This document shows, in pieces, positions 9,447-64,000 of a DNA stretch of 64,000 nucleotides. The notes beneath the pieces were generated by a model. The model made no database searches. It saw only the letters and a list, made by a program, of their open reading frames with translations, and was not told where the DNA came from. This DNA is from an uncultured Pseudomonadota bacterium. GTDB taxonomy: Bacteria; Myxococcota_A; UBA796; SXON01. The stretch covers positions 93,438 through 157,437 of the forward strand of contig CAIUMM010000015.1 of assembly GCA_903900265.1 (NCBI GenBank), read 5' to 3'. The position numbers and the translations under genes were made by a program. Within the stretch, counting starts at the first letter, position 1, and every line of letters begins with the position of its first letter.

Positions 9447-10388
9447 TTACCGCGGCTTCGGCGGGGCGAGCTTGTTCATCGCCATCATCTGGCGCATGGT
9501 CTTGTCCATCCCGTCGGCCGAGCCGTCGAGGAACATCACGTTGCCACGCCCGTTCTCGGCGAAGTGCTTGAGCGACTCGGTCCACATCGAGAACAGGATG
9601 AAGCTGACGTCGAGATCGGCCTTCTGCATCTCCTGCGCGGCTTCGGTCATGCCCTTGGCGACCTCGGCGCGGAACAGCGCGATGCCCTGACCGCGCAGCT
9701 GGGCTGCGGTCTTTTCCGCCTCGGCGGCGATCTTGATCGCGTTGCCTTCGGCCTCGGCACCCTTGGTCTTGGTGATCAGCAGCGCCTGTCCTTCGTTCTC
9801 GGCGGCGGCCTTCAGGTTGCTGGACGCGACGACCTTGGCCATGGAGCGCGAGATCTCCTCGTCGAAGCCGATGTCGTTCATCTGCAGGTCGATGAGGTGG
9901 TAGCCCCAGCTTGCGAGCGCGAAGTCGAGCTGGTCCTTTACCGAGTCGATGATCTCGCGGCGCAGCGCGAGGATGTCCTGCTGCTTTTTGGTAGCGACGA
10001 ACGCGCGCACTGAGCCTTCGACCGAGCGGGTCAGCGCGACCATAAACGAGCGCTCGTCGACGAACTTGAACGCGACATTGAGGATGGTGTCTTCATCCGA
10101 GTTCAGCACCGAGTACAGCAACATCGCTTTGAAGTGTACGTTGGCCTGATCGGCGGTGATCGCCTGAAACGAAAGCTCGACCGACTGGTTTTGCAAGGAC
10201 AAGCGCTTGGCGGCGCTCTCGATGATCGGGATCTTGAAGTTCAGCCCGGCGCGTTGCACCCGCGCGAACTTGCCAAAGCGCGTCAGCACCACCACCGTGC
10301 CTTGGCCCACGACGTTGAAGCAGCCGGCAAAGAGGGAAAGGCCAAAGAGCCCGCCCATAAGGATGAGCGAGAGGGCGATGAGTTCCAT
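9447..10388 (-). CDS. SPFH/band-7 (stomatin-prohibitin-flotillin) domain protein
   Basis: Start trimmed to ATG at 10388 (MELIALSLILMGGLFGL membrane anchor). This is followed by VVVLTRFGKFARVQRAGLNFKIPIIE and a coiled AE/AK-rich C-terminal region typical of SPFH proteins. Confidence 0.9.
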   Translation of the reverse strand: MELIALSLILMGGLFGLSLFAGCFNVVGQGTVVVLTRFGKFARVQRAGLNFKIPIIESAAKRLSLQNQSVELSFQAITADQANVHFKAMLLYSVLNSDEDTILNVAFKFVDERSFMVALTRSVEGSVRAFVATKKQQDILALRREIIDSVKDQLDFALASWGYHLIDLQMNDIGFDEEISRSMAKVVASSNLKAAAENEGQALLITKTKGAEAEGNAIKIAAEAEKTAAQLRGQGIALFRAEVAKGMTEAAQEMQKADLDVSFILFSMWTESLKHFAENGRGNVMFLDGSADGMDKTMRQMMAMNKLAPPKPR

Positions 10389-10420
10389 GGGCAGTTCCGG
10401 GGTTTGAATTCTTGTTCTGG

Positions 10421-10648
10421 CTAACGCGCCTCGCCAACCTTGGACATGGATCCTGCCAGCAGCGCGGCGACCCCGTACGCCGCCAGCGCCACGAGGAAGC
10501 CGTCGGTGTAGCCCCACATCCGCGCCACCAGCACCGTCCCGAGGCTCGCGACCACGCTCATCCAGCCGTTGATCGCCCACGCCCACGGCACCAACGGCCG
10601 CGCGGCGTCGGGCAGCGCGCGCATGCCCATCGGGAACGGCATGCCCAT
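10421..10648 (-). pseudogene. orphan duplicated 3' tail (75 codons) of the spermidine-synthase-like membrane protein gene
   Basis: Translation MGMPFPMGMRALPDAARPLVPWAWAINGWMSVVASLGTVLVARMWGYTDGFLVALAAYG.. is almost identical to the last 75 residues of the 762-aa protein at 11174-13462. No upstream part of the gene is attached. Confidence 0.7.
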
Positions 10649-10649
10649 C
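10437..10649. repeat. direct repeat copy A (213 bp)
   Basis: Aligns without gaps to 11187-11399 at a constant offset of 750 bp. I count 5 mismatches (10451, 10462, 10471, 10472, 10535). Confidence 0.95.
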
Positions 10650-10658
10650 TAGGCTTCG

Positions 10659-11162
10659 TCAGTATGGCGCTTCGCACGGCAGGTCGCTCACGTACATCTC
10701 GGCTGTCACGTATTCCGCAACACCCGTCGTGGCGTCCAACCGCGCCATGCTGAGTTTCCGCCCGTGCGGGAAGGAGTCATCGCAGGCGTCGAGCCATCCG
10801 ACCACTTCCCAATTGGCGCCTACCGCTGACCATTCGAACGTCGCGGTGCACCCGCTCACGCCGGGCACCAGACCCTGCGCTTGGGCGGCACAGATGGCAG
10901 CCGCCTCGCTCAGGTAGCGGTTCGGATCACACGCACCTCCGCTGCACGATGCAGGTATGAGCACAGCGTCTGCGCCGCGCCCGTGCGCCGCAATACAACA
11001 CCCCACAGCGTCCTCCACATCCCCACACGTCACCGCGCAGTCGTCCACCGGGCACGCCTCCGTCTCGGGACCGCCTGGGCCGCAGGGTTGGCAGCTGAGG
11101 ACCGTTGTGCAAGGGAACACAAGCAGGCCGCAAATCAATGCCCAAGAAAATTGCACGTTCAT
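10659..11162 (-). CDS. small Cys-rich secreted protein
   Basis: Start trimmed to ATG at 11162 (MNVQFSWALICGLLVFPCTTVLSC signal-like). About 18 Cys in 167 aa. It lies exactly between the two 213-bp repeat copies. Confidence 0.65.
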   Translation of the reverse strand: MNVQFSWALICGLLVFPCTTVLSCQPCGPGGPETEACPVDDCAVTCGDVEDAVGCCIAAHGRGADAVLIPASCSGGACDPNRYLSEAAAICAAQAQGLVPGVSGCTATFEWSAVGANWEVVGWLDACDDSFPHGRKLSMARLDATTGVAEYVTAEMYVSDLPCEAPY

Positions 11163-11173
11163 GGCGTCCCGTA

Positions 11174-13462
11174 CTATCCTCGGCCGACCTTGGACATGGA
11201 CCCTGCCAGCACCGCGGCGATGCCGTACGCCGCCAGCGCCACGAGGAAGCCGTCGGTGTAGCCCCACATCCGCGCCACCAGCACTGTCCCGAGGCTCGCG
11301 ACCACGCTCATCCAGCCGTTGATCGCCCACGCCCACGGCACCAACGGCCGCGCGGCGTCGGGCAGCGCGCGCATGCCCATCGGGAACGGCATGCCCATCA
11401 CGAAGCCTAACGGCAGCAGCAGCACGCCCACCGCGAGGCAGCGCCCAAGCAGCGACCACCCCAAGGCGTAGCTGTAGAGCAGCGGCGGTACGACGAAGGC
11501 CTGCACTGCGCCGAGGAGCACGACGGTCGCGAGCACCCAGCGCAGCTTGGAGGTGTCCAAGCGCTCAGCCACGAGGCTGCCGACGCCTGAGCTGACCAGC
11601 ATCGCCAGCACGACCACGGTGATCGCGTAGGTCGGGTGCCCGACAAACAGCACCAGCGCGTGAATGAGCACCGTCTCGATCGCGAGGTAGCCGTAGCCCA
11701 GGCACGCGACGTAGCCGAGGGCCGCGCCCGCGCCGGAGAGCCGCGCGATCTCGGAGCGCCCGCGCAGCGCCCAGGGCAGCGCCAGCAACAGCACCCCGGA
11801 GAGCAGCACCACGCCGCATTGAACGACGATCGAGCGCCACAGCACCGCCAACGGCGCTTCGGTGTCGCCCGCCGCGTGGGTCCACGCGTCATGCAGCGCG
11901 TCCGCCACGATGGACGGGCTGTCCTGGTAGGGATGGTCGTCGGTCATCGCCGGCTCGCTCATCACCTTCTTCCACGCGGAGGTCGGGCCCTCGGCCATGG
12001 GATCGAGCGTGAGCGTCGCCTTCACGTAGTTGGGGAGCAGCGCGACCATCGCGTCCCGCTCCGCCTGCGTCCACGCGCGTGGCCGCGCCAGCATTACCCG
12101 GCTGTTGCCTTCGATGTACGCGATGTTGTGCCACGGATCGGTGACACCGCGCGCGCGCAGCGCAGCCACACAGGCGCGCACGATCTCGTCGGTCTGTGAG
12201 CCCTTGCCGAACGAGACGATGCCGTCGGGGTTCAGGTGCGCGAAGTAGTCCTCAAACGCGTCTTGGGTCTCCAGCAGCGCGGGGGACCACACATTCGACA
12301 AGAGCCCAGCGGACGACCACAAGTTGGCGTGCACCATCAGGATGACGTCGTAGGGCTCGGTCGCGCGCAGGATCGCCGCGCGCCCGTCGGAGTGGACGCG
12401 CACGGTGTCGCCGTGGGTGTACGGGTTGACCGGGCTGTCGGCCCAGCGCGTAGCGACGATCTCGAAGATCTCCGAGGCGATGTCGACCGCCTCGATGTGG
12501 GTGTGACCGTAGGACTGCGCGATCGCGACGTCCGGGCCAGCGGACGCGGCGAGGATCGCGCCGTGCGCGGGCGGCGGCACGAGCTGCCAGGCCAGCGAGC
12601 GGTTGATGTTGGCGGCGCGCTGCTTGACGTCGCTCGCGGTGCGCACGATCTCGGAGGCCGAGGTGTTGTCGAGCAGCACGTAGGCGTGGTTGGGCTTGTC
12701 GAGCACGGACAGGCGGGTGAGCGGCGTCCAATAGGTCGCGACCACCTGATCTTCGGCGAAGCCTGCGGCGCGCTCGATCTTCAGCACGTCGGTGCGCGTC
12801 GACACGCCGATGAGCCCCAGACTCACGACGCCGGCGATCAACGAGGGCCAAAGCGGCGTTCCCGCCGCGCGTGATAGAAGCAGCGCCGAGAGCGCGCAGG
12901 CTGCGAGCACCACAAACACCACGTCCGGCCCGGCCAGCGCGCCGAGCAAGGGCAAGAACACCGCTGCCCCCGCCGCTGCTCCAAGCAGATCTGCGGCGTA
13001 CAGCTTGGCGATGTCCTCTTTGCGGCGCTGGAACAGCCCCGCGAACACGAGTCCCGCGGTCGCGAAGGGCGCGGCGAGCACCGGCAACAACGCGGCGAAC
13101 CACCAGCCGTTCAGCAGATCGTCTTTGATCGACGAGCGGTCTTGGTATGCGTCCGGCGGGGTCTCAAAGTAGCGCAGCACCGGGAAGTGCAGCACGGCGA
13201 GCACCGCGCATAGCGTGACCGCCGCTTGGATCAGCGAGAGCGTGGAGATGCGGCGCAGCAGGCCCTCGACTGGCACCAGCGAGGGGCGCAGGTGCTGGGC
13301 GAGCGCGCCCGCGGCGATGCCACACAGCGCCAGCGCCAGCGCGAGATGCGCAAAGTCGGCGAAGAGCACGACCGCGAAAAGGCGCGTCAACAGCAGCTCG
13401 TAGAGGAGCAGGGCAAAAGAAAGCAGGAACGCTGCGGCAGCGAGGGCGCGGTTCTCGGACAT
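11174..13462 (-). CDS. fused polytopic membrane / spermidine-synthase-like (class I SAM-dependent aminopropyltransferase fold) protein
   Basis: 762 aa. An N-terminal block of about 7 TM helices is followed by a central soluble domain with GAILAASAGPDVAIAQSYGHTHIEAVDIASEI and YDVILMVHANLW (SpeE-like), then a C-terminal TM bundle. Confidence 0.8.
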   Translation of the reverse strand: MSENRALAAAAFLLSFALLLYELLLTRLFAVVLFADFAHLALALALCGIAAGALAQHLRPSLVPVEGLLRRISTLSLIQAAVTLCAVLAVLHFPVLRYFETPPDAYQDRSSIKDDLLNGWWFAALLPVLAAPFATAGLVFAGLFQRRKEDIAKLYAADLLGAAAGAAVFLPLLGALAGPDVVFVVLAACALSALLLSRAAGTPLWPSLIAGVVSLGLIGVSTRTDVLKIERAAGFAEDQVVATYWTPLTRLSVLDKPNHAYVLLDNTSASEIVRTASDVKQRAANINRSLAWQLVPPPAHGAILAASAGPDVAIAQSYGHTHIEAVDIASEIFEIVATRWADSPVNPYTHGDTVRVHSDGRAAILRATEPYDVILMVHANLWSSAGLLSNVWSPALLETQDAFEDYFAHLNPDGIVSFGKGSQTDEIVRACVAALRARGVTDPWHNIAYIEGNSRVMLARPRAWTQAERDAMVALLPNYVKATLTLDPMAEGPTSAWKKVMSEPAMTDDHPYQDSPSIVADALHDAWTHAAGDTEAPLAVLWRSIVVQCGVVLLSGVLLLALPWALRGRSEIARLSGAGAALGYVACLGYGYLAIETVLIHALVLFVGHPTYAITVVVLAMLVSSGVGSLVAERLDTSKLRWVLATVVLLGAVQAFVVPPLLYSYALGWSLLGRCLAVGVLLLPLGFVMGMPFPMGMRALPDAARPLVPWAWAINGWMSVVASLGTVLVARMWGYTDGFLVALAAYGIAAVLAGSMSKVGRG
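11187..11399. repeat. direct repeat copy B (213 bp, inside the intact gene)
   Basis: See copy A. This copy forms the authentic 3' end of the 762-aa gene. Confidence 0.95.
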
Positions 13463-13584: not shown

Positions 13585-15408
13585 ATGAACCGCCTTCCTG
13601 CGTCTCTCCTGCTGCGTAACTCCCCGCTTGTCCTCGTTGCCCTGCTCGCGCTTGCGACGGCGCTGCCCGCGTCCGCCTCGCCCGCGAGGTCCCGTGCGCC
13701 ATCCGCGCCTGCGCAGTCCCGTGCGCCATCCGCGCCTGCGCCGTCCACGCCCGCCGCGTCCCCGCGTCTCGCGACCCTCAACATCCCCGGCGATCGTCGC
13801 TTCGCGCTCATCGCTCGTGACATCATCGACGCGCGCATCGCGTTGAACCCCGATCTGGCCTCCAGCGTCGGGCTTTTCGAAGACGCGGTGCGCGTCCCTT
13901 CGTACACCCCCGCCGCAGTGGCGGCTCAGGACGCGCGGCTCGCTCAGGACCTCGCCGTGTTGACCAAGATGCGCTGGCGCGGCTGGTCGGTCGACGCGCA
14001 GATCGACTACCGCTGGGTTTGGGCGAACGCGGAGGAGGCCCGACGCCGCTTGACCGTCGAGCGGATGTGGGAGCACCGCTATGGCGAGTACCTCGAGCCG
14101 GTCGCCAACACCTTCATCTCGCTGACCACGTACGCGCCCGAGCGGGTGGACCTGCGCGTGAAGCTCGCGGCGCTGCTCCCGGCGATGATCACCGAGATGC
14201 TGGCGCAGGTGACGGCGCCCACCCAGCGCGACGTGACCACGGCGCTTGGGCTCTTAGATGGCTTGGATGCGGTGGTGGCGCAGCTCCCCGAGGGTGCTGA
14301 GCGTCAGGCGGCGGCGGTGGCGTTGACCGAGGCGCGCACCCAGCTCAACGCGCGCGCCAAGGAGACGCTGCCCGAATTCGCGGTGATCGGAAAGGAGAAC
14401 TACGAGTGGCGGCTGACGCACGCGCTGCTGTTGCCGTGGGACTCCGCGGCGCTGCTGGAGCACGCGCAGGGCGAGCTCACCCGCGTAGACGCCGAGCTTG
14501 CCGCGTTGAAGCCCGCGGAGTTCAGTGGGGTCGCGACGCCGGCCGAGTCCGAAGCCGCGGCGGCGATGGACCGGGCGGGGTTCTTGAAGCTCTACGATGA
14601 CGTGGTGGCGCGCAACCTCGCCGCCTTGCGCGCGATGAACGTGCTGACCGTACCCGCCGACCTCCCGGCGATGCATTGCCGCGAGACGCCCGCCGCGCTG
14701 CTGCCGTTGACCGGGGACGGCGGGAGCATGAACCCGCCGCTCGCGTTCCCGTCGCTGGGAACCGGGGGCGCTGCGCCCGTAGGCTGGTGGAACGTGCAGC
14801 ACTACAGCGCGGACTGGACGCTCGCCGAGCGCGAAGCGATGATCGTGTCGGCCAGCCATGCGGAGCTTTCGGGTCTGGGGCCGTACGCGGTGCACGAGGG
14901 CGTGCCTGGGCACCACCTGCAGCTGTCGATGCTGCCGCAGCTCAACAACCCGATCCACGCCATCCTCCAAGACGGCAGCGCCGTCGAAGGCTGGGCGCTC
15001 TACGCCGAGCAGCTGTTCTGGGAGGGCGGCGGCTTCGGGGACTCCGAGCGCGCCCACGCCAACATGCTCCGGTCGTATCGGGGCCGTATCCGCCGGGTTT
15101 TCTACGACACGCACATTGAGGGCGGCGAGTGGACGCTGCAGCAAGGCGCCGATTGGAAGGCCGGCACCGCCCCGGGCGTGACCGCGCCGGATCCCGACGT
15201 GCTGCGGTCCATCCAGTGGCCGACGCAGCTGATCACCTACTTTGCGGGGAAGAGCCAGATCCTCGCCTTGCGGGAGGATGTGCGCGCGCTTCAGGGCGCT
15301 GCGTACTCCGATCGGGCGTTCAACGATGCTCTGCTGGCCGAAGGCCCGATCCCGGTCGCGCTCATCCGCGCCAAGATGTTGGGTGAGCCGGTGCCGGACG
15401 TTCGGTAG
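13585..15408 (+). CDS. DUF885-family secreted protein (metallopeptidase-like HExxPGHHxQ motif)
   Basis: 607 aa with a signal-like N-terminus. HEGVPGHHLQ and the later EGWALYAE blocks are typical of DUF885. Confidence 0.85.
   Translation: MNRLPASLLLRNSPLVLVALLALATALPASASPARSRAPSAPAQSRAPSAPAPSTPAASPRLATLNIPGDRRFALIARDIIDARIALNPDLASSVGLFEDAVRVPSYTPAAVAAQDARLAQDLAVLTKMRWRGWSVDAQIDYRWVWANAEEARRRLTVERMWEHRYGEYLEPVANTFISLTTYAPERVDLRVKLAALLPAMITEMLAQVTAPTQRDVTTALGLLDGLDAVVAQLPEGAERQAAAVALTEARTQLNARAKETLPEFAVIGKENYEWRLTHALLLPWDSAALLEHAQGELTRVDAELAALKPAEFSGVATPAESEAAAAMDRAGFLKLYDDVVARNLAALRAMNVLTVPADLPAMHCRETPAALLPLTGDGGSMNPPLAFPSLGTGGAAPVGWWNVQHYSADWTLAEREAMIVSASHAELSGLGPYAVHEGVPGHHLQLSMLPQLNNPIHAILQDGSAVEGWALYAEQLFWEGGGFGDSERAHANMLRSYRGRIRRVFYDTHIEGGEWTLQQGADWKAGTAPGVTAPDPDVLRSIQWPTQLITYFAGKSQILALREDVRALQGAAYSDRAFNDALLAEGPIPVALIRAKMLGEPVPDVR
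13690..13743 (+). repeat. 27-bp in-frame tandem duplication (2 units, 1 mismatch)
   Basis: TCCCGTGCGCCATCCGCGCCTGCGCAG / TCCCGTGCGCCATCCGCGCCTGCGCCG, encoding SRAPSAPAQ SRAPSAPAP in the linker after the signal peptide. Confidence 0.9.
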
Positions 15409-15427
15409 CGCGGGCCCGGTGCGCCCC

Positions 15428-17311
15428 TCAGTCCTCGGCGATCACGATGACCTTGTCGGCCTCATTGAACGTGATCATCGCTGACTTCTTGGGGTTGACC
15501 GCGACGCCGTACTTGCCTGCGGCATCATGGGATTTGCCCGCGATTCGGTAGCCGATGGCGATCTCGCCGCGGTGGCGCGCGGACTCGACGACGGTCGCAA
15601 AGTTGACCGGGACGCCGGGAGCGACGTAGTCGGCGCAGGGCTTGATGTAGATATCCGAGCCGTCGTTGAACACCGCGTTGAGCTCTTTGTTCTCCGAGAC
15701 CTGCGACAGCATCAGGCTGACCAGCTGGTCGCTGACGATGAAGTCGTCCGCTTTGGTGACCTCGGCGAGCGCGCGGTTGCGGACGTCGAGCATCTCACTG
15801 ACGATGGAGAAGTCGTGGTTCGCTTTCTCGCCGATGTCGCGCAGGTGCAGCAGCGTGACCAGCACGCGGGAGTCGGCGCGCTGGGGATCGAGCTGGTCGG
15901 AGCACAGCACGATGACGTGGTCAAATGACGTCAGCGCGAGGCTCTCGAGGGTGCGTCGGTGGGTGCTCTCGCCCTTGATGACGGAGATCGTCTGCCGGGT
16001 CAGCTGCGGGCGTGCGGCCTCGATATGGGCTTCGATGTCATCGGCTACGGCGAGCACGGTGACCGTAGACCCCTCCGCGACGTAGGCATCGAGGCCGGTC
16101 ACGATCCGCGCGCCTTTCCAATTCCATCCGAGGATCAACGTTCTCTCGACGCGTGCAATGGCTTTTTCTGCGGTGCGGATCGCGGGCTCCTGCACCCTAG
16201 GCTGGGCGCTGGAGAGCTTGATGGTGTCGTCGTCTTCGCTGATGGCGATCACCTTGTCGCTGGGCTGGATCACCGTGCTCATCGGCGGGTTGATCCTGAC
16301 GCTGCCGTCCGCAGCGCGCAGGCCGATCAGCGCGGAGTCCTCAAAGGCGTTCAGCGCGTCGCCGAAGGTCTTGCCAGACAAGCCAGGCTCGTGCTTGAAG
16401 TAGATCTCGCCGCCGCCGAAGTCGAGCAGCTCGGGGTGCACCACCGAGAGCCCGCTCTGGCGGCAGGTCTGCACCGTCACCCTGGAGAAGAGGTCGCCCG
16501 CGACGACGATCTCGAGCTCGTTGCGGCCGACCAGCCGTGCCGCGTCGATATTATCGGGGTTTCGGATCTCCGCGGTGATGTGGTAGGGCGCATCCCGCCG
16601 GTTGGGGCCGTTGGTCAGCGCGAGCACCGCCTTGATCACGTCGCTGTCGGGGTCGTCAGCCCCTGCCTCGGCGAGCACGATGATCGAGCGGCTGGTCTGC
16701 ACCGCCACGCGGTTTAGATCTTTGAGCTCCATCGGGGATCCCGACCGGCACACGATCCGCGTGTTCCCTGCGTGACCGATGGCATCGCGGATCGCATCCT
16801 CCATTTGCACTTTGTCGCGCTCGGCGAGGATCACGATGCAGGCGTTCTTGCGGTTGGCGTTGGCCTTAATCAGCTCGCCGAGGATGGTGAAGATGTGGGG
16901 CGACCAATTCAGGATGACCGTGTGATCCTTCTCAATCACCCTAGACCGACCCTTGCGTAGCTCGACAACGCTGGCACCGATGCCGTTGTTGAGCACGCCG
17001 ATCAGCGTGGACACGACAAACACGCCTCCCAGCGTGATCCACAGCATCGAGAGCTTGAACGGCCAGCTTCCTTTGTCCGAGCCCATCGTCCCCGAGTCGA
17101 GGGTGCGCATGAGGCCGTACCACACCGTCTCTGGCAAGCTCATCGCGGGGGTCTCTTCCGGCGTCCAACCCGCCAGCCAGACGACGAAGGTGGAGGCAAA
17201 AAGGAACCCGAAGGTGCCCACAGATAGCCAGCCGATCAGCGCGATGGTGCCCCGCGACATGGAATTGTCGAAGGCGTATTGTGCACGTAGCACGACGGTA
17301 GACTTTGCCAT
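15428..17311 (-). CDS. CASTOR/POLLUX-like ion channel with tandem RCK/TrkA-type domains
   Basis: 627 aa. The N-terminal TM helices are followed by two repeats of a Rossmann-like module (HTVILNWSPHIFTILGEL.. and RTLILGWNWKGARIVTGL..). The gene is visibly less GC-rich than its neighbours. Confidence 0.75.
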   Translation of the reverse strand: MAKSTVVLRAQYAFDNSMSRGTIALIGWLSVGTFGFLFASTFVVWLAGWTPEETPAMSLPETVWYGLMRTLDSGTMGSDKGSWPFKLSMLWITLGGVFVVSTLIGVLNNGIGASVVELRKGRSRVIEKDHTVILNWSPHIFTILGELIKANANRKNACIVILAERDKVQMEDAIRDAIGHAGNTRIVCRSGSPMELKDLNRVAVQTSRSIIVLAEAGADDPDSDVIKAVLALTNGPNRRDAPYHITAEIRNPDNIDAARLVGRNELEIVVAGDLFSRVTVQTCRQSGLSVVHPELLDFGGGEIYFKHEPGLSGKTFGDALNAFEDSALIGLRAADGSVRINPPMSTVIQPSDKVIAISEDDDTIKLSSAQPRVQEPAIRTAEKAIARVERTLILGWNWKGARIVTGLDAYVAEGSTVTVLAVADDIEAHIEAARPQLTRQTISVIKGESTHRRTLESLALTSFDHVIVLCSDQLDPQRADSRVLVTLLHLRDIGEKANHDFSIVSEMLDVRNRALAEVTKADDFIVSDQLVSLMLSQVSENKELNAVFNDGSDIYIKPCADYVAPGVPVNFATVVESARHRGEIAIGYRIAGKSHDAAGKYGVAVNPKKSAMITFNEADKVIVIAED

Positions 17312-62464: not shown

Positions 62465-64000
62465 TTTTCCACCCGGGCCGCTCCCCAGGCGACCATCGCG
62501 CTCGACAGCGGCATCAACACCGCGGCGATCAGCGGGTTCACCCAACCGGCGACCGCCGCGGTCACCGCGAGGGCGTTGTAGATCAGCGACCGCGACGCGT
62601 TGCCGCGGATCGCGCGCTTGGCGGCCCGCGCCGCGCGTAGTCCGGCCGCCACCGGTCCCAGTCCGTCCCGCGCCACGACGGCGTCCGCGACGGTGACGGT
62701 CGACGCGACGCCCGTGCCCATCGCGACGCCCACGGTCGCGGCTGCCAGCGCGGGTCCGTCGTTCACGCCGTCGCCGACAAACAGCACGCCGCCGCCCTGA
62801 GCCCGCACCCACGCGGCTTTGGCCTCGGGCGTCGCGCCGGCGAGCACCTCGGTGATGCCGGCTTCGGCGGCGATGCGCTGCACGACTTCGGGGTGGTCGC
62901 CGCTCACCAGCACGACGCGGTAGCCAGCGGCTTTGAGCGCCGCGACGGTGCGGGCGGCGTCGTCGCGGATGACGTCGCGCAGGCCGATGCGGCCGCCCTT
63001 GTTCTGGGAGGTGTGGGCGGGATCGGCGTCGCAGCAAAGCTCGACCTGACCTGCGGCGCCGGCGCGCAGGGTCCAGCGCACGCCGTCGATGACCCCGGAG
63101 ATGCCGGATCCGGGCTGCTCGACGAGGTCCAGCGCCTCGGGCATCGCGACGCCGCGGCGCGCGGCTTCGGCGCGGATGGCGCGGGCGATGGGATGGCCGC
63201 TGGCGCGCTCGAGCCCGGCGGCGATGCGCAGCACCGCGCTCTCGGTGGTGCCCGTGCCCGCGGTGATCGCGGTGACGGCAGGCTCGCCGTGGGTGATCGT
63301 GCCGGTCTTGTCGAACGCGACGGTCGTGATGGTGGCGAGGCTGCGCAGCGCCTCGCCGCTGCGGACCAACAGGCCGCGGCGCGCCGATGCGCCGAGCCCC
63401 GCGGCGGTCGACAGCGGCCCGGCGAGCGCGAGCGCGCACGGGCACGCGACGACAAGCACGGCCATCGCCCGCTCAGGGCCGCCGATCGCCAAGGCCAAAG
63501 CTGCCAAAATCAGCGTCAGTCCGGTGAACCACGGCGCGATGCGGTCGGTCAGCGACGGCGGGGTGGGACGATCGGCGGCGCGCGCCAGCTCGGCCGCCAT
63601 ACGCGCGAGCAGCGTGTCCCCGCCGGTCGCTTCGACCCGTACGACGATCGCGCCGTCCTCCACGAGGCTCCCCGCGACCACAGCGTCCCCGACGCGCACT
63701 TCGACCGGCTCGGCCTCGCCGGTCAACAGCGACATCCGCACCCGCGCCCGGGCGCCGGACAAGCGCACGATGATCCCGTCCGCAGCGATCTCTTCGCCGA
63801 GCCCGACGTCCAAGATGTCGCCCACGATGAGCGCGCTCGCGGCGACGTCCACCCCGGCGCGGCGCGCGACCCGCGGGGCGGTGCTGGCGAGCGCGGTCGC
63901 GGCTTCGACGGCGCTGCGTCGGCCCCGCTGCTCCCACAATCGCCCGGCGATCAGCAGCGTCACCAGCATCGACAGCGAGTCCAACCACGTGTCGCGCCCG
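62452..64000 (-). CDS. heavy-metal (Cu+) translocating P-type ATPase, CcoI/FixI-like, 5' end outside the window
   Basis: CPC motif (VVACPCALALAGP), DKTGTIT phosphorylation site and GDGVNDGPAL hinge. The frame runs to the window edge. Confidence 0.9.
   Translation of the reverse strand, partial: GRDTWLDSLSMLVTLLIAGRLWEQRGRRSAVEAATALASTAPRVARRAGVDVAASALIVGDILDVGLGEEIAADGIIVRLSGARARVRMSLLTGEAEPVEVRVGDAVVAGSLVEDGAIVVRVEATGGDTLLARMAAELARAADRPTPPSLTDRIAPWFTGLTLILAALALAIGGPERAMAVLVVACPCALALAGPLSTAAGLGASARRGLLVRSGEALRSLATITTVAFDKTGTITHGEPAVTAITAGTGTTESAVLRIAAGLERASGHPIARAIRAEAARRGVAMPEALDLVEQPGSGISGVIDGVRWTLRAGAAGQVELCCDADPAHTSQNKGGRIGLRDVIRDDAARTVAALKAAGYRVVLVSGDHPEVVQRIAAEAGITEVLAGATPEAKAAWVRAQGGGVLFVGDGVNDGPALAAATVGVAMGTGVASTVTVADAVVARDGLGPVAAGLRAARAAKRAIRGNASRSLIYNALAVTAAVAGWVNPLIAAVLMPLSSAMVAWGAARVEKWTR

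Follow-up and report, generated by a model that had tools for sequence, protein, structure and literature searches.

A lipoprotein gene between two copies of its neighbour's 3' end: a probable insertion with long target duplication in an uncultured freshwater Myxococcota

Restriction-modification genes have been found as inserts that carry no mobility genes and lie between long direct repeats specific to each locus (Nobusato et al., Gene 2000; Furuta et al., NAR 2010, PMC2853133), an arrangement known as insertion with long target duplication. In the part of PMC2853133 consulted here, the repeats measure 46 to ~420 bp, align once with the empty site of a related genome and frequently overlap a gene's 3' end; naturally competent species supply most of the cases. 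[quoted passage not shown] As far as this source goes, long target duplication is thus a known route of gene gain whose mechanism has stayed unexplained for 25 years and which is discussed almost only for restriction-modification genes. Here we describe a locus that joins this known and poorly understood class. It lies in a 64,000-nt stretch of DNA (the window, C15:93438-157437; GenBank assembly GCA_903900265.1, contig CAIUMM010000015.1) and consists of a small gene for a Cys-rich putative lipoprotein (the cargo) placed between two copies of the 3' end of a gene for a polytopic membrane protein (the target gene). The organism is an uncultured freshwater Myxococcota, the closest named relatives being metagenome-assembled genomes (MAGs) from lakes, such as 'Myxococcales bacterium Baikal-deep-G128'. 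Its own MAG comprises 5.8 Mb in 236 contigs and is 93.6% complete, and the contig that holds the window has 211 kb.

Judged from its sequence, the present case possesses every structural feature that defines insertion with long target duplication. The insert is short and without a mobility gene, the repeats are long and unique to the locus, and the empty site holds a single copy. Moreover, the insert deviates in composition, the repeat overlaps the 3' end of a neighbouring gene, and its 221 nt fall within the range of 46 to ~420 bp given in the consulted part of PMC2853133. The cargo differs, being a single lipoprotein gene without nuclease or 'selfish' activity and not a restriction-modification system; such cargo marks where the class was found, not its defining structure. 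An explanation through double-strand breaks made by a restriction enzyme is therefore inapplicable here. With an ordinary lipoprotein gene in the insert, a cargo nuclease cannot be a requirement of the process. The host differs as well, an uncultured freshwater Myxococcota in which the insert is polymorphic within one natural population. The locus further carries a 10-nt reverse-complement copy made in place, of which we found no description in the consulted part of PMC2853133. The value of the case lies in its being young, polymorphic in the sampled lakes and free of nuclease cargo, with junctions that are still sharp.

Three other systems produce comparable structures. Campbell-type insertion-duplication, as used for mutagenesis in streptococci and Bacillus, likewise gives an order of homology, cargo and homology that is reversible by recombination between the copies, and there too the distal copy keeps the downstream context. 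It starts from a plasmid built in the laboratory, whereas the present locus has no demonstrated circle and its junctions look illegitimate; in addition, the homology here ends two codons before the stop, hence the target gene survives. Islands integrated at gene 3' ends (e14 and phage 21 at icd of E. coli; the cis-mobilizable elements, CIMEs, of ICESt1) share the duplicate that restores the 3' end and the orphan tail downstream. They rely on a tyrosine integrase and an att core, while our locus has no integrase on its contig, no shared core and an insert of only ~0.5 kb. Insertion sequences of the IS1634 type in Mycoplasma generate long direct repeats of variable length through a DDE transposase of the element that acts on terminal inverted repeats. 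Their target duplications resemble ours in being long and variable in length, but both transposase and terminal inverted repeats are absent here.

The two repeat copies, A and B (Table 1), align without gaps over 10433-10649 and 11183-11399, at an offset of exactly 750 and with 6 mismatches in 217 nt (positions 10436, 10451, 10462, 10471, 10472 and 10535). A preliminary description of this stretch had reported a 213-bp repeat at 750-bp spacing, and over 10437-10649 we likewise count 5 mismatches in 213 nt. If one 1-nt indel is allowed, the homology grows by another 4 nt to the full copies of 221 and 222 nt (97% identity), the class being defined by direct repeats of more than 30 bp. Five of the six mismatches fall within the last 40 nt of the target gene, and the remaining one lies 115 nt from the opposite edge of the repeat. 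BLAST of the repeat against the whole MAG returned two copies only (E 1e-109 and 1e-101), so that it represents neither a chance match nor a dispersed repeat. It consists of target-gene coding sequence and not of a tRNA, and no tRNA or Rfam match was found at the locus. The free-standing tail of 75 codons with its own ATG and stop, noted earlier, is indeed an open reading frame (ORF; 10648..10421); it codes for the target protein's two final hydrophobic helices, was called as a gene on 8 and 9 contigs from other assemblies, and seems to be a by-product of the duplication. Orthologues of the target gene occur in four congeners (78% amino acid identity). A Pfam search with the 762-aa protein matched 0 families, which leaves the earlier label 'spermidine-synthase-like' without support.

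Table 1. Features of the duplicated locus, listed in gene direction (positions in the window).
Feature	Position	Strand	Remarks
Target gene, 762-aa polytopic membrane protein	11174..13462	-	ORF; last 2-3 codons and TAG stop now from inserted DNA
Native 10-mer directly preceding the duplicated segment	11400..11409	-	TAGGCTTCGT in gene direction, ACGAAGCCTA on the plus strand
Repeat copy B, 222 nt, joined to the full-length gene	11178..11399	-	extra base 11182/11183 relative to copy A and the empty alleles
New DNA, 518 nt	10660..11177	-	15-nt leader (ATAGTACGGGACGCC) and cargo ORF up to two stop-codon bases
Cargo gene, 167-aa Cys-rich putative lipoprotein	10659..11162	-	10 nt beyond the target gene
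Flipped 10-mer	10650..10659	.	exact reverse complement of 11400-11409; TAGGCTTCGT on the plus strand
Repeat copy A, 221 nt; former 3' end of the target gene, now displaced	10429..10649	-	colinear with the empty alleles through the stop into the SPFH gene
Orphan 75-codon ORF, MGMPFPMGM...KVGEAR*	10421..10648	-	own ATG and TAG; last 75 codons of the target gene
Original 32-nt spacer, target stop to SPFH start	10389..10420	-	32-33 nt in empty alleles
SPFH/Band_7 gene, untouched downstream neighbour	9447..10388	-	Pfam PF01145, E 9e-30

The direction of the event can be read from alleles that lack the cargo. Strains with at least 95% amino acid identity carry the empty site on a 50-kb contig, on the 39-kb scaffold L029 and on L030, L031 and L032, where the target gene is followed by 32-42 nt and then by the SPFH gene, with identical neighbours on both sides. 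Moreover, two of the four congeners have the target gene directly before the SPFH gene, and the repeat aligns once with the related empty sites (L029-L032, the 50-kb contig, and congeners G001 and G004). The empty site that the preliminary description had predicted, gene tail followed by the SPFH gene, is hence present both in conspecific strains and in congeners. Base by base, the empty allele is colinear with copy A and all sequence that follows it downstream, and likewise with the upstream sequence through copy B. The empty allele is U-R-D and the filled allele U-R-new DNA-R-D, R being the repeat and U and D the sequences on its upstream and downstream sides. Because both halves are colinear in this way, copy A is the displaced original end of the gene, while the end of copy B comes from the insert. 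This reverses the earlier assignment of copy B as the authentic gene end: the terminus of copy A (KVGEAR*) and its spacer match the empty allele, and the KVGRG* of copy B is contributed by the insert, from which the final codons and the stop of the working target gene (...KVGRG-TAG) thus derive. In agreement, most members of the protein cluster formed at 90% identity or more to the target protein have 763 aa and end in ...KVGEAR. The event is recent, and the variants by which copy A is distinguished from copy B in the window segregate among empty alleles as well; the earlier suggestion of a recent insertion as opposed to an ancient fixed duplication is borne out. A plain partial tandem duplication, offered at the same time, is unable to supply foreign cargo.

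The filled layout is not confined to the window. It was recovered from independent assemblies as the 25-kb scaffold L026, the scaffold L027, which has a gap of 100 N within copy A, and eight shorter contigs (L038-L045). The junctions between cargo end and repeat and between repeat and cargo start occur on more than ten contigs from different samples and assemblers, and gene calls for the window-type products of 762 aa and of 75 aa were made on 8 contigs apiece. This recurrence counters the possibility, raised with the original observation, that the repeat is an assembly artefact. Contigs of the MAG show identical ends of up to 141 nt, which implies that k-mers of that length were used in the assembly. 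Since at most 115 nt separate one difference between the copies from the next or from an edge of the repeat, such k-mers phase the two copies, and the integrated order in the window strain is real.

Both junctions of the insert are irregular. Where copy B meets the insert, the filled allele has one extra base 4 nt before the point of divergence, which shifts the frame to ...RG-TAG. Without this base the target gene would read on for 84 codons; as it is, it stops two codons past the junction. At the junction of insert and copy A, the intact gene's 10 nt from just before the repeat are found again, reverse-complemented and in place, directly before copy A (chance ~1e-6 per position). This flipped 10-mer is present on every filled contig and occupies the place where a direct copy would extend the duplication. 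In gene direction its first base completes the TGA stop of the cargo, and it sets a TAG immediately in front of the orphan ORF's ATG. Were the 10-mer turned back to its native orientation, the cargo would lack a stop and would continue across copy A into the reading frame of the SPFH gene, and with the 10-mer removed entirely it would be fused to the 75-residue tail. Since each irregularity gives the ORF upstream of it an immediate stop, we infer that selection for clean gene ends has acted, either among junction variants or through a later small template-switch mutation. A hairpin or fold-back as the source of the 10-mer would predict a palindrome of reverse repeat, loop and repeat, which by inspection is absent. 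A flipped k-mer is not a general signature either, none being found at five other loci of the cargo family or at 15 other repeat pairs of the genome. The 10-mers at 10650-10659 and 11400-11409 form an inverted pair that brackets the cargo together with copy B and not the insert, and removal of that unit does not restore the empty site. Of the earlier statement that the locus has no transposase, integrase or inverted repeat, the first two parts agree with our Pfam and PF00589 scans, and the third has to be given up for this pair.

The new DNA itself (518 nt, counted without the duplicated block and the flipped 10-mer) is absent from the empty alleles. The whole insert of 528 nt holds a single ORF without Pfam match; it is free of mobile elements and far below the 20 kb that bound the class. 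The new DNA has a GC content of 0.65 and a GC at third codon positions (GC3) of 0.73, against a GC3 of 0.89-0.95 in the neighbouring genes. Neither a copy nor a fragment of the cargo was found elsewhere in the whole MAG by blastn and tblastx, and a copy from another place in this genome was rejected on these grounds. A word-indexed search matched the cargo alone; the view of an orphan gene that this suggested was abandoned, as an exhaustive phmmer search detected 66 relatives at E<=1e-3, the best with 47% identity. The family comprises proteins of ~150-165 aa from Myxococcota with a lipobox-like N-terminus and, in the alignment, 8 invariant positions including 6 Cys, and 24 of 182 genomes of the class carry it. 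An AlphaFold2 model of the cargo reached a pLDDT of 88, and Foldseek against the Protein Data Bank (PDB) gave nothing below E 0.37 for it; a PepSY-like or other known fold was rejected for want of a Pfam match and of a Foldseek match below this value. In two genomes a member of the family follows a gene for an M10-like metalloprotease, and this pairing hints that the family may act as a protease partner or inhibitor.

Two congeners hold a different gene in the slot between the target gene and the SPFH gene. It encodes an unrelated Cys-rich lipoprotein of 190-200 aa (L007 3814-4386 in G003; L008 850-1452 in G002), has no Pfam match and no flanking repeat, and was rejected as an orthologue of the cargo (BLASTP E 3.5). 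Because the congeners have another, unrelated Cys-rich lipoprotein gene at this place, the slot looks like a hotspot for small secreted-protein genes.

Repeats also flank other members of the cargo family. With a threshold of at least 60 nt and at least 80% identity, 5 of 27 other loci have the family gene, with no, one or two neighbours, enclosed by direct repeats of 66-151 nt (80-91% identity). Among the controls, such repeats were present in 0 of 146 windows taken from relatives (Fisher p ~7e-5 for this comparison) and in 3 of 400 random windows of this genome. The flanking repeats are unrelated in sequence between loci. For instance, L053 1109-2062 (G022:C15) has a 66-nt duplicate (91% identity) of the 3' end of a convergent TPR-like gene, unique in the genome and with an orphan tail ORF; the cargo is antisense to its target gene there, and a congener shows the empty site (L097 of G020), the two neighbours lying ~50 nt apart. 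By these features L053 is a second, independent insertion with long target duplication in the same cargo family and in another genus. L058 124-2017 (G118) and L060 142-1984 (G031) have locus-specific direct repeats of 67 and 73 nt (86-87% identity) around a unit of three genes, namely a secreted protein, the M10-like metalloprotease with its HExxH motif and the cargo-family lipoprotein, the second repeat beginning at the stop codon of the cargo. Both repeats occur only as the pair at the locus, apart from a partial copy of that of L060 at the end of another contig. The remaining two loci are L046 and L056. The latter was rejected as the same phenomenon, as it belongs to a local array of 5-6 copies.

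We put the probability at roughly 0.6 that the locus arose by insertion with long target duplication in the sense that ~518 nt of foreign DNA were joined into the last 75 codons of the target gene by an illegitimate event independent of a recombinase. Such an event could be the repair of a break or a template switch during replication, perhaps acting on DNA imported into the cell; the genome has a ComEC homologue, which is uninformative since most bacteria carry one. The event would leave the chromosome at the gene end and re-enter ~221 nt upstream, placing the gene tail on both sides of the insert, and this duplication would let the target gene stay intact. A gene would thereby be added inside an operon without damage to either neighbour. 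The locus has all its genes on the minus strand, between which neither a promoter-like site nor a convincing terminator-like one was found, and the cargo is probably co-transcribed with those around it. Later, the insert would persist as a presence/absence polymorphism and be shuffled by homologous recombination between strains, and recombination between the 221-nt copies could delete it precisely or, in principle, amplify it or release a 750-bp circle.

Several points weigh against this account. None of the steps of the mechanism has been observed, and a circle carrying R and the cargo that integrates by homologous recombination gives the same final structure. Neither junction has clear direct microhomology (GAGG at most, shifted by one base), an unusual finding for template switching. 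Classical end joining is made less likely by the failure to find Ku in the 93.6%-complete MAG. The nearest relative of the cargo is only 47% identical. Among the five repeat-flanked family loci, L058 and L060 count as candidates, and L056 is a local multi-copy repeat.

The order of events within the species may be questioned in that the filled state could be the older one, the empty sites being secondary precise deletions between the repeat copies; we regard this as rather unlikely. The filled haplotypes of the window and of L026 are ~1-1.5% apart around the locus, their inserts differing at 5 of 537 nt, and the empty L031 differs from the filled L026 at only 2 of 2610 nt in the target gene; these figures speak for an older filled state. 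However, the repeat end and spacer of L031 differ from copy A of L026 at 6 of 248 nt, which misfits a simple deletion product. The more distant alleles L029 and L032 and two congeners are also empty, the repeat copies are nearly identical, and the orphan ORF has no decay. Empty and filled contigs co-occur in two samples (L030 and L044 in ERZ27263765; L031 and L045 in ERZ28612949). The insert has thus resided long enough for slight divergence and is probably being shuffled, and perhaps lost again via its repeats, within a population that recombines; the available fragments do not yield a clean tree. The question concerns later history only, and an older filled state can be true together with insertion with long target duplication.

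Campbell-type insertion-duplication, proposed with the first description of the locus, is in our judgement unlikely as its origin. Here a 750-bp circle composed of one 221-nt tail and the cargo would have entered by a single RecA-dependent crossover, the irregular junctions stemming from an earlier imprecise formation of the circle by excision or ligation. The final structure is exactly that of a single crossover, and the life cycle proposed in the consulted part of PMC2853133 includes release and re-entry. Three cyclic contigs from three samples, L033 (755 bp, i.e. 750 plus an overlap of 5 nt), L034 and L035, read from the cargo end through the repeat to the cargo start, as expected of a circle or of a tandem array. 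However, all three belong to the strain type in which one base near one end is the sole difference between the two copies, and short reads are for that reason unable to phase the repeat of this type. In the type of the window, which a difference 115 nt from the repeat edge makes phasable, both the window and every clustered ORF version are integrated, and no chimeric version was seen. The cyclic contigs are hence probably products of a collapsed repeat. Moreover, a circle that bears the tail of the target gene presupposes that the cargo was already at the locus, which leaves its first arrival unexplained, and among the alleles examined none has the cargo without the second repeat copy. The locus-specific duplications at other sites are not accounted for either, the same signature there requiring a process that creates the duplication at a new site. 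What stands of the earlier proposal is that the final layout fits and that a 750-bp circle is possible, with the cyclic contigs as the only hint. A purely homologous crossover is neither shown nor needed. Both junctions of cargo and repeat bear marks of illegitimate joining; the Campbell mechanism is unproven, and a simpler account of the first arrival is at hand.

A broader and quite doubtful idea extends insertion with long target duplication into a cycle. Small accessory genes of aquatic Myxococcota (the lipoprotein family, toxin-antitoxin pairs, secreted peptidases) would move as recombinase-free units of tail plus cargo, entering with a long target duplication, being released precisely as a small circle (here of 750 bp) when the two copies recombine, transferred and re-entering, in the manner suggested by Kobayashi's group for restriction-modification genes. 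If this were true, the released or amplified form would be represented by the three circularly permuted contigs, and the strand switch that creates the duplication would have left the flipped 10-mer as its footprint.

Site-specific integration of a miniature non-autonomous, CIME-like element by a tyrosine integrase acting in trans, with the gene 3' end as attB and the copy on the element restoring the gene, seems very improbable. Integration at a 3' end with a restoring duplicate is a hallmark of integrase-driven islands, and the genome has five tyrosine recombinases (PF00589). All five lie elsewhere, none being present on the 211-kb contig, and no Pfam mobility domain (transposase or integrase) was found in the insert. 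With 221 nt the repeat far exceeds the usual length of identity segments, no repeat flanks the other cargo that two congeners have in this slot, and the junctions are irregular and not precise. Nor is there a common att site, since the repeats at other loci are unrelated. A DDE transposon or miniature inverted-repeat transposable element (MITE) is not indicated, as the ends of the insert show neither a transposase nor terminal inverted repeats, and neither is an integron cassette, the 9-10 nt between the cargo stop and copy A leaving no room for an attC site. The weakest alternative, a collapsed or mis-threaded repeat or a strain mixture that yields a layout present in no cell, might draw on the fragmentation of the MAG into 236 contigs, on the 100-N gap inside copy A of one scaffold and on the mis-threading that cyclic contigs reveal, and is hardly credible beside the junctions and window-type products recovered from many contigs, samples and assemblers and the six copy differences, each at most 115 nt from the next landmark, through which k-mers of up to 141 nt phase U-B-cargo and cargo-A-D.

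Other repeat pairs were seen in the course of the survey. In the MAG of the window (G000), unique pairs of 48-106 nt with 96-100% identity enclose inserts of 0.4-1.9 kb, the majority having a GC content lower than that of the genome (C187:55326-56062, C114:11870-13872, C52:24648-25623, C106:149210-150040 and C183:10169-10769). Among their cargo are a DUF433/PIN-like pair and, behind the tail of mnmE, an S53-like secreted peptidase of 631 aa, and some duplicate the last codons of a gene; by this resemblance they may possibly be further insertions of the same kind. Not all nearby direct repeats can be so regarded, and those on C102, C205, C153 and C206 were rejected as copies of a dispersed palindromic element. 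This element of ~60 nt (AGGTGTCAGGTTGTT...AACAACCTGACACCT) is intergenic (C102:11785-11850, C205:39642-39700, C153:13006-13065 and C206:65786-65846, with their partners); it mimics flanking repeats and needs masking in scans for target duplications.

A repeat array of another type is found at L093 (G008:C14:28000-46000), where a 128-nt sequence occurs 5-6 times in one orientation (at 2140, 4044, 12643, 13597, 14532 and 15478). The repeats separate cassettes, among them a DUF4160/DUF2442 pair, RHH/PIN-like pairs and a cargo-family gene, and a metal-efflux operon interrupts the series. The arrangement is integron-like, but its repeat does not fold like attC (z -0.5 to -1.7), and neither does the repeat of L056.

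Contig C152 (92,743 bp) has identical ends of 141 nt and for this reason probably represents a closed circle of ~92.6 kb, plasmid or phage-like. It carries a tyrosine recombinase at 63264-63749 and dense repeats of 60-200 nt at 9-26 kb. The small contigs C18, C21, C74, C82 and C115 likewise have identical ends.

Two observations concern allelic variation near the locus. The scaffold L028 from the European Nucleotide Archive (ENA; 4.1 kb) holds at 249-2312 an allele of the target gene that matches to about codon 597 and then continues in frame into an unrelated Cys-rich tail with different neighbours; this truncated allele was set aside as unrelated to the insertion event, being either a chimeric scaffold or a real rearrangement. 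In the region of the RCK-channel gene (window positions 15250-17000), the window and L026 diverge by ~10%, compared with 1-2% in the flanking genes, and this segment is locally hypervariable or recombined.

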